This document shows positions 49,649 through 51,469 of a stretch of DNA of 64,000 bases, piece by piece. How positions within the stretch are numbered: the stretch's first letter is position 1; each line of letters begins with the position of its first letter. Made by a program: the position numbers and the translations under genes. Below the pieces are notes generated by a model, which was not told the DNA's origin, searched no databases, and saw only the letters and a list, made by a program, of their open reading frames with translations. Where the stretch lies: positions 4,281-68,280 of the forward strand of contig JBJKZY010000045.1 in assembly GCA_045568995.1 (NCBI GenBank), read 5' to 3'. The DNA comes from Fidelibacterota bacterium (GTDB lineage: Bacteria > Fidelibacterota > Marinisomatia > Marinisomatales > UBA1611).

Positions 49649-51469
49649 ATGAAAAAGAGTAAAAAATATTTTATTCTTATTATAAGTGTGGTAGCAACAG
49701 TCACTATGATATTTTCACAAGGTGACGGTTACCTTTCTCAAAAATTAATGGTGGAAAATAATATTAGAGATAGAGTAAAAGACGCATTGTCTAAACTTAT
49801 AGAATCTCATAAATATGTAATTAATGTTGATGTAGAGTTAGAAGTACTGGAGGAAGTAAATGAGCAATTCACTTATTATGCCCCAAGATCAAATGAGAAT
49901 AAAAAAGAAAAGTTTTCTCCAGCGCAGGAGACTGCAAACGCCTTGAATGAAATTCAAAAGAAAATGGTTCAGAGCGATATGGCTTCCCAAAAGGATAAAT
50001 ATGCAATTGGGCTACCAATACCCGGTTTTGAGGTAGATGTATCTTCATCTAAAAATAGTCCTAGTCCTTCTATTCAGTCACCAAAACCTTTTTCTCCAAA
50101 AGAATTAAAAGCAACCTATCAAGAAGCAGGGGAAGATGAACCTGCAGAAAAGGAAGTTGTGGACAAAGTTTTCTCAACTAAAAGGCCTTCTAAAACTGTA
50201 ATAAAAAAGATGGATCTTTCTCTTATTCTGCAAGAAGGTGCTGCTCCTGAGTTGATAGAAAACATAAGGCAGTTAACTATGGCTGCAGCAAAATTTGATC
50301 GCCAAAGAGGAGATAAGCTTACTATAATGACAGCTAGTTTTAAGGAAAGACGAGATCAAAGAACGGCTGAGCAGGTAATGTTAAAAAACATTGCTGAAAA
50401 AATTGATGTTATGGAAAGGAAAAGATCTTCAGAGGCAACAGATTGGCGCGATGATATTCAAAAATACAAGGAAGAAGTTTTACTTCGGCGTGAAGAGGAT
50501 TTAGCTAGCTTTCAATCTCAACTTGCTCAATTAGATAAAGTTAGGCTCCAAGAAGCTGCTGAATTTGAAAAAAAAGAATTGGCAAGAAAAGATTCCATTC
50601 GAAATTCTAAACTAGAAAATGAAATTGAAGCTTTGAAAGATATGCTTACTGTAAACGTATCAAAAGAGGAAACAAAAGATAAGAAACTTGATTCTACACG
50701 GTTCGCAATGCTCGATAATGAAATGCAAGGTCTCAGGAAAATGCTCTTGCAGGCAATGTTGCAGGATTCTTTAGAGGGTCAACAAAAAGCTCAGGCAAAA
50801 ATTGCTGAAGAATTAGCTTCTAGAGAAAAAGAAAAAGCCTCAAGGGATTCAATTATAGCTGATAAAATTGCAGCATTGGATGCTGTTCAAGCAGACCTTC
50901 AGGCTTTAGGAGCAGAAAATGGGGAAGGTTTGGATACTAAAATGCTTATAATTATCGGGCTTGGTGTTTTAAGCGTTATTTTACTGGTGTTAATGATTTT
51001 ACAAAAAGGGAAAAAAGGCATGCAGGCGCAAGGTGCATATCCTCCTGGACCTATTCCTCCTTATCCATATCCTCCCCCACCTAGAAGAAGACGCCGACGT
51101 AAAAAGAGACCGGAAAAAGAGGTAAAAGAAGAAGCAAAAGAAGTAAAAGAAAAACCTAAAGAAACTAATCAGGATCAAAATGGATTAACTGAGCCTGCTC
51201 CACCGGTTTCCGCAGCTCAAGTTGCTGCTATGGAAGCTCAAAATGAAACTAATAATGACAGTGTTACTCAAATGGTTGATGATCCAAATGTATTAAAAAG
51301 TGAGATTGATGATATAAGAAAATCTGTTGTTTCAATGAGCGTTGGACAGCCTGCAAGGACGTCAACCATAGTTAAAGAATGGTTAGAACAGCCTGCTCCT
51401 GAAGCTCCCGCACCAGACGAATCGTCTAGTGATGATGGTGGGGAAGAAGAAGAAAGCGGCGAAGAATAA
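49649..51469 (+). CDS. Divergent FliF-like ring protein (RBM3 only, long coiled coil, TM, FliG-binding-like tail)
   Basis: ENNIRDRVKDALSKL...INVDVEL and IKKMDLSLIL...IRQLTMAAAKFD.QRGDKLTI...F resemble the split FliF RBM3; C-terminal P..TSTIVKEWL resembles the FliF C-terminal helix; lies directly upstream of fliG. Confidence 0.7.
   Translation: MKKSKKYFILIISVVATVTMIFSQGDGYLSQKLMVENNIRDRVKDALSKLIESHKYVINVDVELEVLEEVNEQFTYYAPRSNENKKEKFSPAQETANALNEIQKKMVQSDMASQKDKYAIGLPIPGFEVDVSSSKNSPSPSIQSPKPFSPKELKATYQEAGEDEPAEKEVVDKVFSTKRPSKTVIKKMDLSLILQEGAAPELIENIRQLTMAAAKFDRQRGDKLTIMTASFKERRDQRTAEQVMLKNIAEKIDVMERKRSSEATDWRDDIQKYKEEVLLRREEDLASFQSQLAQLDKVRLQEAAEFEKKELARKDSIRNSKLENEIEALKDMLTVNVSKEETKDKKLDSTRFAMLDNEMQGLRKMLLQAMLQDSLEGQQKAQAKIAEELASREKEKASRDSIIADKIAALDAVQADLQALGAENGEGLDTKMLIIIGLGVLSVILLVLMILQKGKKGMQAQGAYPPGPIPPYPYPPPPRRRRRRKKRPEKEVKEEAKEVKEKPKETNQDQNGLTEPAPPVSAAQVAAMEAQNETNNDSVTQMVDDPNVLKSEIDDIRKSVVSMSVGQPARTSTIVKEWLEQPAPEAPAPDESSSDDGGEEEESGEE

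Follow-up and report, generated by a model that had tools for sequence, protein, structure and literature searches.

A FliF-like protein lacking RBM1/RBM2, encoded with its own FliG and MotA/MotB relatives in Marinimicrobia: a candidate ring subunit of a non-flagellar rotor-stator machine

In the flagellar motor, the RBM1 and RBM2 domains of the ring protein FliF surround the type III export gate, RBM3 forms the S ring and the C-terminal helix co-folds with the N-terminal domain of FliG, whose M domain binds FliM through the EHPQR motif. FliF has two transmembrane helices, one on either side of its periplasmic region, and ~34 copies of it make up the ring. To our knowledge, the core made of FliF, FliG, MotA and MotB has been described only as what drives the flagellum. 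In the Tol-Pal and Agl-Glt systems, an ion-driven inner-membrane motor, an anchored long-helix protein, TPR proteins, a lipoprotein and a probable outer-membrane beta protein are encoded together; as far as we know, these systems use motors of the TolQR/ExbBD type and have neither FliG nor an RBM3 ring protein. The subject of this work is a six-gene operon located in a 64-kb stretch of contig JBJKZY010000045.1 (the window, by which the whole stretch analysed is meant), whose fifth gene encodes a FliF-like protein. The window belongs to a metagenome-assembled genome, 52% complete, of Marinimicrobia (Candidatus Neomarinimicrobiota, Fidelibacterota), which are among the most abundant bacteria of the dark ocean and make up a sizeable share of deep-ocean bacterioplankton.

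The analysis demonstrated that the FliF-like protein, a FliG-like protein, a MotA/MotB pair and two envelope partners are inherited as a unit that is under selection and does not depend on the flagellum. Judged by sequence, the FliF-like protein has kept RBM3 and is devoid of RBM1/RBM2. We consider it rather likely that this protein builds the ring (rotor) of a non-flagellar machine of the rotor-stator kind that descends from the flagellar motor.

Domain layout of the FliF-like protein

The gene and the segments that could be distinguished in its product are the following.

49649..51469, forward strand: FliF-like protein of 606 residues, a real open reading frame according to its translation, Pfam, profile searches and the ratio of non-synonymous to synonymous substitution (dN/dS)
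49649..49717, forward strand: probable Sec signal peptide, residues 1-23, with a basic n-region, a short hydrophobic core, a small residue at -1 and a conserved Gln at +1
49745..49888, forward strand: first half of the RBM3-like domain, residues 33-80, from hhalign and matches to FliF chains of the PDB
49889..50203, forward strand: variable low-complexity insertion, residues 81-185, at the position of the FliF beta-collar, without a profile match
50009..50032, forward strand: motif GLPIPGFE, residues 121-128, inside the variable insertion, read from the translation
50204..50341, forward strand: second half of the RBM3-like domain, residues 186-231, ending RGDKLTIMTASF at F231, from hhalign
50342..50938, forward strand: charged, proline-free, presumed alpha-helical periplasmic stalk, residues 232-430, from composition and three heptad-like patches
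50942..51004, forward strand: single strong transmembrane (TM) helix, residues 432-452 (19-residue Kyte-Doolittle window 433-451, mean 3.26)
51005..51283, forward strand: cytoplasmic Pro-rich and polybasic linker, residues 453-545, read from the translation
51284..51394, forward strand: C-terminal segment resembling the FliG-binding helix of FliF, residues 546-582, with W578, from hhalign and an invariant Trp

The only Pfam family that matched the protein was YscJ_FliF_C (PF08345), at residues 47-231 (E 3.3e-5, 24.8 bits, cut-off 23.8), and PF01514 (YscJ_FliF, corresponding to RBM1/RBM2) gave no match up to E = 1. In relatives, the PF08345 match reached E-values down to 1e-8 (25-36 bits in four of the six relatives scanned), and a precomputed match to this family was present in most of the 120 best database relatives. 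None of the NCBIfam families, including the FliF model, matched at E <= 0.01. A scan of 1.84 billion representative proteins for the family returned 194 matches at E <= 0.001, and the clusters of the family obtained with a language model were all from Fidelibacterota. Its members are named in NCBI either 'flagellar M-ring protein FliF C-terminal domain-containing protein' or 'hypothetical protein'.

Comparison of profiles located the homology to FliF more precisely. A profile of 25 family members aligned with the solved FliF chains 9yh6, 12dr and 8z5s with E-values from 6e-5 to 1.5e-4; in the alignment with 8z5s, profile positions 37-233 paired with chain residues 270-460, and a faint second piece appeared at the extreme C-terminus. 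The main comparison was performed with hhalign between 142 family members, chosen by an N-terminal Q-K-L-x-L-E-like motif and an RGD...F motif, and 30 canonical FliFs from flagellated Marinimicrobia, testing the segments separately. Residues 33-80 aligned with canonical FliF 236-283 (probability 83%, E 9e-6), residues 199-234 with 373-408 (54%, E 1.3e-4) and residues 552-582 with 499-529 (37%, E 3.5e-4). The three segments, which are the first half of RBM3, its second half and the C-terminal region, are collinear in both families. No segment of the FliF-like protein aligned with FliF residues 1-225, which hold the first TM helix and RBM1/RBM2, and neither the variable stretch 96-180 nor the charged region 232-430 found a match in canonical FliF.

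These results agree with most of an original prediction that a model had made from the letters of the window. It had proposed that a N-terminal hydrophobic segment (residues 7-25) is followed by the first half of an RBM3-like domain (the match starts at residue 33), an insertion at the beta-collar position (the variable residues 81-185) and a second half ending RGDKLTIMTASF (F231, nucleotide 50341, within the aligned residues 199-234), then by one TM helix at about 50942-51001 (here residues 433-451, nucleotides ~50942-51004) and a tail with TSTIVKEWL, which is present at residues 571-579. The claim that RBM1/RBM2 are missing was likewise borne out, at the level of sequence, by hhalign and by the comparison of YscJ_FliF with YscJ_FliF_C that the prediction had pointed to, in which PF08345 matched and PF01514 did not.

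The conservation of the family follows the same layout. Residues R207, G221, D222, F231 and W578 are invariant in the 25 sequences of the alignment (A1). Among 42 non-redundant members, filtered to under 70% identity, the Trp motif of the C-terminal tail was found in 40, the polybasic run of the cytoplasmic linker in 35 and the strict pattern G-x-P-[IL]-P-G-F of the variable insertion in 21.

The N-terminal hydrophobic segment differs from the TM helix located downstream. The Kyte-Doolittle mean of residues 7-25 is 1.87, compared with 3.26 for the helix at 433-451. In A1, where one of the 25 rows is without its N-terminus, the corresponding value fell under the 1.8 threshold in 15 of the other 24. 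Directly after the hydrophobic core, 141 of the 142 family members have a Gln, which is preceded by S, G or A in 138 of those 141, and the median number of K/R in the first ten residues of the 142 members is three; many of these members are close kin and the counts overstate their independence. Because the weak hydrophobicity, the S/G/A-Gln pattern and the basic start fit Sec cleavage, the segment is read as a probable Sec signal peptide cut before the conserved Gln. Cleavage would leave one helix as the only membrane anchor of the protein, and RBM3 would lie beyond the charged region, at its distal end. The conserved block of the protein begins at about residue 28, and about nine residues separate the putative cleavage site (after residue 23) from the start of the RBM3 match (residue 33). 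The Q-rule of Bacteroidetes was considered as an account of the conserved Gln and is uncertain: the glutaminyl cyclase family PF05096 matched in none of five genomes, and the rule is stated not to be valid for the entire FCB group in the part of PMC5837995 available.

Of the 199 residues of region 232-430, between F231 and the TM helix, five are glycine and none is proline, while E, A, L, K, D, R and Q account for 71%. The equivalent stretch, from RGD...F to the TM helix, spans 129-208 residues in the 25 A1 sequences and is 42-60% charged or Gln. This composition suggests that the region is probably a long helical stalk, which as a straight helix (0.15 nm per residue) would span ~30 nm here for ~200 residues and ~20-31 nm in relatives for ~130-210 residues. 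The original prediction had described a coiled coil of ~190 residues; the long charged region was confirmed and the coiled coil was not, a sliding 28-residue heptad test being not above shuffles (z 0.34). The best heptad window was matched or beaten by 19% of 300 shuffles, and a global 3.5-residue Fourier measure was not above shuffles either. In the 42 non-redundant members, three conserved patches with hydrophobic residues spaced by 3-4 were detected at 245-255 (L245/I248/I252/L255), 322-333 (L322/I326/L329/L333) and 399-417 (L399/I403/L410/L417), together with a break enriched in Gly/Pro at 336-340. A coiled coil in parts of the stalk is possible. Some branches have an E/R/K-rich stalk of the single-alpha-helix kind, with 0.21-0.23 i,i+4 opposite-charge pairs per residue. 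An insertion of 39 residues, at 343-381 (nucleotides 50675-50791), is specific to the clade of the window and is present in ~5% of the 42 non-redundant members; it makes the protein of the window longer than most and, if helical, lengthens the stalk of this clade by ~6 nm.

Comparison with canonical FliF (PF01514 plus PF08345) summarises the position of the protein. It shares with FliF the order of the two RBM3 halves, the insertion at the place of the beta-collar, the TM helix that comes after the periplasmic part and a C-terminal Trp segment that resembles the FliG-binding helix, and its gene lies directly upstream of a fliG-type gene. Unlike FliF, it does not carry RBM1/RBM2, its first hydrophobic segment resembles a cleaved signal peptide, ~130-210 extra helical residues are predicted between RBM3 and the TM helix and the cytoplasmic linker is Pro-rich and polybasic. 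The genetic context is also different, with motB before it and the fliG paralog after it instead of the order fliE-fliF-fliG-fliH, and the protein coexists with a true FliF in flagellated relatives. The protein is filed as FliF-like, not as FliF, and the system as a variant of the flagellar rotor-stator kind.

Stator, FliG paralog and envelope partners

The FliF-like gene is the fifth of six genes on one strand, separated by gaps of 25, 4, 6, 43 and 19 nt. The other elements of the operon are the following.

45198..45226, forward strand: promoter-like site (TTGACA, 17 nt, TAAAAT) with 11 of 12 consensus matches, a weak hint, since such sites are no more numerous in the region than in shuffles
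45281..46462, forward strand: protein X, 393 residues, with a signal peptide, CarboxypepD_reg, a short coiled segment, a small beta domain and a C-terminal beta-rich domain
46488..47909, forward strand: protein Y, 473 residues, with a signal peptide, a beta-rich N-domain, a helical segment and a C-terminal TPR
47914..48699, forward strand: stator A subunit of the MotA/PomA type (PF01618, E 1.6e-26)
48706..49605, forward strand: stator B subunit of the MotB/PomB type, with plug, TM Asp and an OmpA-like peptidoglycan-binding domain (PF13677, E 6e-15; PF00691, E 7e-9)
51489..52424, forward strand: FliG paralog, 311 residues, with Pfam FliG_N, FliG_M and FliG_C above their cut-offs
52441..52472, readable on both strands: palindromic terminator hairpin with a 14-pair stem followed by a T run, common to the operon and the convergent pyruvate phosphate dikinase gene

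The FliG paralog is a relative of FliG that has lost the FliM-binding motif. It resembles FliG in the presence of the three Pfam domains (FliG_N 49.4, FliG_M 37.1 and FliG_C 65.1 bits), a Gly-Gly linker and the basic and acidic residues of the torque helix. The score against the FliG model TIGR00207 was 100.9 bits for a cut-off of 226.7. In E. coli, the rotor-stator pairs are R90/D288-D289 and E98/R281, as given in the part of PMC12505986 available. A basic residue at the position equivalent to R281, followed by an acidic residue, is found in all 13 paralogs compared, 9 of which have a 4-residue deletion; the Lys of the A-x-K-G motif is also present in 13 of 13. The paralogs differ from FliG in an N domain shortened by ~25 residues, in the presence of E, D or Q where the M domain of FliG has a conserved Arg, and in the EHPQ motif, which was found in 0 of the 13 paralogs and in 5 of 5 canonical FliGs. 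The median identity is 40% within the 13 paralogs, 63% within the 5 canonical proteins and 23% between the two groups, and paralog and canonical FliG from the same genomes are 20-29% identical. No longer fused forms of the FliG-like protein turned up in a search, which is weak evidence given the search method.

The stator belongs to the PomAB/MotPS/MotAB kind, with which it shares a four-TM MotA with a charged cytoplasmic loop and a MotB with plug, TM Asp and OmpA-like domain. MotA and PomA chains of the PDB matched the MotA of the module with E-values from 1e-34 to 1e-31, and MotB and PomB chains matched its MotB. Both proteins scored under every NCBIfam equivalog cut-off, the nearest models for MotA being MotP and PomA; they are of this kind and of no named subfamily. 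In the loop 'ARK..LE' of the module MotAs, the R is present in 11 of 11, K/R in 9 of 11 and the E in 9 of 11, and the Asp of the channel TM helix is kept in 7 of 7 module MotBs. Unlike the described stators, the module MotA falls into an orthologous group apart from the MotAs encoded beside flagellar genes: in a maximum-likelihood tree (unrooted, with rows as fetched), a branch with 100/100 support separated 11 module MotAs from 7 other MotAs.

The first two genes encode the proteins named here X and Y. Protein X has a Pfam CarboxypepD_reg domain (PF13620) at residues 31-98, and over 266 residues it shares 56% identity with a 322-residue ortholog in a class-level relative (G122). A lipobox Cys is present in the X proteins of six of eight aligned relatives, which do not carry CarboxypepD_reg. 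In the family of the window (nucleotides 45281-45700; 14688-15938 in locus L016), this lipobox N-terminus is replaced by a signal peptide plus the transthyretin-like CarboxypepD_reg. A profile search found no relative of protein X among the sequences of the PDB. The same kind of search with protein Y, which is 42% identical to its G122 ortholog, yielded only TPR matches, in line with the TPR Pfam matches at residues 392-460. Residues 25-300 of protein Y display hydrophobic segments with period 2, 11% Gly and 13% aromatics, a composition that makes an outer-membrane barrel a possible fold for this domain. A language model gave leads, and leads only, to barrel/TPR proteins of the YaiO type (score 0.87-0.88). 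Beside protein Y, the same kind of score (0.97) placed a protein cluster from Candidatus Margulisiibacteriota, which hints at Y-like proteins, and perhaps related modules, outside the phylum. In most of six distant loci, one or two additional TPR_6/YfiO-like proteins, identified with Pfam, are encoded between X and Y.

At the other end of the operon, the hairpin at 52441-52472 is a perfect palindrome with T runs on both sides that can serve both the operon and the dikinase gene. The dikinase gene adjoins the module in loci L002, L004 and L007 as well; it was confirmed with Pfam in L007 and inferred in L002 and L004 from an 898-residue open reading frame of like size and orientation. Between 43000 and 53000, Rfam identified no regulatory RNA, and its only matches, below threshold, were on the terminator.

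Distribution, selection and surroundings

The distribution of the module was analysed in a panel of 151 genomes of the phylum, made up of genomes at least 80% complete and that of the window. A FliF-like relative was found in 106 of the 151. FlhA was above its cut-off in 38 genomes, and the FliF-like relative was present in 27 of these 38 and in 79 of the 113 FlhA-negative genomes (hand count). PF01514 matched in exactly one place each in 40 genomes and did not match in the other 111, 79 of which have a FliF-like relative; in the five genomes in which the coordinates were compared, this place was the canonical FliF and not the module protein. It is unlikely that a canonical FliF was mistaken for a FliF-like relative at the reported E-values because canonical FliF is very distant from the FliF-like family. 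The FliF-like protein also occurs in whole families and in most of an order without FlhA, and a genome assembled in a single contig (G026) has the module and no match to FlhA or PF01514. FlhA, FliP, FliM, flagellin and CheW had no match in any of five close relatives that are 95-99% complete; this and the lack of RBM1/RBM2 support the earlier claim that the ring cannot house an export gate. In genus g6 of family f3 (G023, G031, G039, G067 and others), which belongs to the same order and whose genomes are of ~1 Mb and without FlhA, the module was found in 0 of 9, so the most streamlined lineage can do without it.

Five flagellated genomes (G122, G136, G135, G009 and G015) show how the module relates to the flagellar genes. 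All five have a cluster with canonical FliF and FliG located far from the module, read as flgB-flgC-fliE-fliF-fliG-fliH-fliI, in which FliF and FliG were confirmed with Pfam and the others were named by order and size. Each genome has two FliG_C matches. Besides the module MotA, 46-52% identical to that of the window, they encode one or two further MotAs with 35-39% identity to it. Two of these genomes contain a third MotA paralog (G009:C1:277492-278313 and G015:C6:204037-204855; L136 and L137), which forms its own clade beside the near-flagellar MotAs. In some relatives, the FliF-like paralog occurs beside a full set of flagellar genes, which rules out that the module is simply a 'reduced flagellum'.

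Synteny was examined in loci obtained by scanning one genome per species for the FliG-paralog motif and retaining the best 80 of 169 relatives. The FliF-like gene was directly upstream of the FliG-like gene in 79 of the 79 loci with upstream DNA, and the order X-Y-MotA-MotB-FliF-like was found in 51 of the 52 loci with at least 5.8 kb upstream; in the exception, L099, X lies beyond the flank and TPR genes stand between X and Y. The record titles that name a phylum were all Marinimicrobia, Neomarinimicrobiota or Fidelibacterota except for that of one 2.5-kb contig, from a metagenome-assembled genome labelled Terriglobia. This contig (L077) carries the FliF-like and FliG-like genes; since the 52% identity of its FliG to the paralog of the window is what relatives within Marinimicrobia usually show, the contig was probably mis-binned and does not represent a second phylum. 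No record titled Fidelibacter multiformis was among the module matches; strain IA91 of this species (AP035449), which is the sole member of the phylum in culture, is reported to be non-motile (PMC11652737). The proposed rotor-stator machine appears to be specific to Marinimicrobia (Fidelibacterota).

In the literature, no description was found of a FliF-like module with its own FliG and MotA/MotB, and supplementary gene lists may hold these genes. The available parts of a study on MotAB and its non-flagellar homologs (PMC12505986), of one on the ancestral flagellum (PMC13277936) and of one on SAR406 genomes (PMC5596340) do not mention the operon. In the accessible text of another report, 11% of non-motile species keep a rotor protein, which 'could have an alternative function', without specific mention of this module (10.1101/2024.12.05.626484).

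The selection acting on the FliF-like gene was estimated in a non-flagellated lineage by comparison with three relatives of 92%, 89% and 77% identity, which gave whole-gene dN/dS values of 0.060, 0.063 and 0.084, respectively. The values were 0-0.05 across the RBM3 halves, stalk and tail in summary, and lowest in RBM3 and the tail; by part, they were 0-0.013 in the first half of RBM3, 0.018-0.05 in the stalk and 0-0.065 in the C-terminal tail. They rose to 0.085-0.10 in the variable insertion (residues 81-185) and to 0.14-0.24 in the part with the TM helix and linker, the least constrained. The low values of the stalk, equal to those of the RBM3 halves, suggest that it is more than a passive spacer. 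With regard to expression, all six genes are partly covered by marine RNA contigs at least 95% identical to the window (4 libraries from 4 studies), of which one crosses from the MotB into the FliF-like gene and another from the FliF-like into the FliG-like gene, a weak hint that the operon is expressed.

The remainder of the window contains 50 further open reading frames, among which Pfam found no other flagellar genes and instead found housekeeping genes. MnmE, YidC and a divergently oriented DnaA followed by SSB, at 367-5243, suggest that the chromosomal replication origin region lies within the window. Pfam assigned no family at E <= 1e-5 to four consecutive open reading frames (499, 299, 162 and 497 residues) at 15559-19851 on the reverse strand. 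Two secreted proteins, encoded at 29023-30453 (reverse strand) and 30499-32244 (forward strand), have C-terminal sorting domains for type IX secretion; they are an M23 peptidase and a FG-GAP repeat protein, and the organism probably has a type IX secretion system. Downstream of the operon, 55236-58265 on the reverse strand encodes a protein of 1009 residues made nearly entirely of MORN_2 repeats, whose signal peptide likewise ends before a Gln.

A proposed machine and its rivals

If the FliF-like protein is the ring subunit of a rotor-stator machine, the assembly might operate as follows. After cleavage of the signal peptide, the mature protein would be held by one TM helix, with RBM3 atop a helical stalk of ~20-30 nm. 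It would oligomerise through RBM3, and its cytoplasmic tail would bind the FliG paralog one to one. Ion flow via the PomAB-like stator would push the charges of the torque helix of the FliG paralog and turn or strain the assembly of FliG and FliF-like proteins. The stalk would convey this movement to the distal RBM3 assembly, ~30 nm away here if straight, where it would meet X, a lipoprotein, and Y, with its beta-rich domain plus TPR. The original prediction had imagined the helical region as a drive shaft that lifts the ring across the periplasm, and this is plausible, as the predicted segment is long enough and constrained. The output would be neither a filament nor a chemotactic response, since a system without RBM1/RBM2, export genes or FliM motif would support no export of rod or filament and no response to CheY. 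As a guess, its cellular job is moving or remodelling something in the outer envelope.

Several observations weigh against this proposal. The homology to FliF is modest when its pieces are taken singly: the Pfam match of the FliF-like protein is just 1 bit above the cut-off, each hhalign segment had a probability of 37-83% and a smaller hhalign trial, with 25 against 5 sequences, gave 17% and one segment only. The RBM3 fold, the ring formation, the helical stalk and the FliG binding are all deduced from sequence, and the localisation of X and Y from crude composition. The heptad test found no signal in the stalk, two of the 11 module MotAs lack the conserved Glu and contigs from RNA libraries do not prove transcription. 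In flagellated genomes, whether a match belongs to the module or to the canonical set was decided by coordinates in five genomes only. From a mechanical point of view, the rotation of many stalks through the peptidoglycan is hard to picture, no bushing being evident, and a rotating bundle of stalks would need to cross the peptidoglycan or stay beneath it.

The main rival explanation is a non-rotary force transducer similar to Tol-Pal or TonB, in which the MotAB-type channel would energise an anchored long-helix protein that contacts partners in the outer membrane and tethers or remodels the envelope in the absence of a large rotating ring. In its favour are the layout, with one TM helix, then a long charged helix and a globular domain at the distal end, the E/R/K-rich stalks with opposite-charge i,i+4 pairs in some branches, the heptad signal that was not found and the TPR proteins, lipoprotein and OmpA-like domain among the partners. 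Against it stand a full FliG paralog with torque charges, encoded next door in 79 of 79 loci and without equivalent in the Tol and Ton systems, a stator of the flagellar MotA/PomA and not the ExbB/TolQ type, and a globular domain that is RBM3-like and of the ring-building kind. Nor is the module anticorrelated with TolB_N, being present in 25 of 31 positive and 81 of 120 negative genomes (hand count). On balance, a transducer of this kind seems unlikely. The related idea that the module replaces Tol-Pal was rejected, TolB_N being found in 31 of the 151 genomes and 25 of these 31 having the module.

The remaining explanations link the module to the flagellum or to defence. TPR and OmpA-like proteins build accessory rings in some flagellar motors, and this precedent, together with the coexistence of the module with flagellar genes in 27 of 38 FlhA-positive genomes, could suggest that the module serves the true flagellar motor as an accessory, for example as an additional ring in the periplasm or a scaffold for the stators, and lingers in lineages that lost the flagellum recently. 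Such an accessory is improbable for a module that has its own MotA, MotB and FliG, lies outside the flagellar cluster in all 5 genomes checked, is present in 79 of 113 FlhA-free genomes, including whole families and most of an order, and evolves with a dN/dS of 0.06-0.08 in a non-flagellated lineage. Close relatives lack matches to flagellar export, switch and filament genes, as would be expected if the operon were a decaying, functionless remnant of a lost flagellum; this reading is highly improbable in view of the strong purifying selection, the relatives' frames, all of them reported open without internal stops, and a gene order invariant over 52 species loci (51 of 52 in the detailed count), and the canonical FliF and FliG that flagellated relatives keep alongside make the FliF-like protein a paralog. 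Matches of the MotB to ZorB models (E 7e-13 to 5e-6) and, weakly, of the MotA to ZorA (E 0.0036) could suggest an anti-phage system of the Zorya kind, with a MotAB-type channel at its base. These matches reflect the shared MotAB fold, flagellar MotA/MotB models scoring far higher, and neither ZorC, ZorD and ZorE nor the long tail of ZorA is present. PADLOC has no model that matches X, Y or the FliF-like protein, a single weak AriA match of the FliG paralog (E 0.0056, 14.5 bits) was not counted, and the operon is kept vertically and fixed in the core synteny of the phylum, unlike defence islands. A role of this kind is extremely improbable.

Returning to the rotor-stator machine, a more specific version of it can be put forward tentatively, with more doubt than conviction: a second FliG/MotAB rotary motor in which a RBM3 ring, placed on its own 20-30 nm stalks, would deliver torque straight to the lipoprotein X and the barrel-TPR protein Y, representing a new class of trans-envelope machine. 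This second rotary motor, which would have no axial export apparatus, rod or filament, could be a surviving relative of a rotor that predates the flagellum, or a case in which the motor core was put to use again. If the proposal is true, the rotor-stator core works in the absence of the type III export gate, the rod and the switch complex, which bears on the origin of the flagellar motor and on which of its sub-assemblies can function on their own. It would also offer a testable answer to why 11% of non-motile species keep a rotor protein, a figure taken from the available part of the report cited above (10.1101/2024.12.05.626484), and it would point to a new envelope function in organisms that are almost entirely uncultured.

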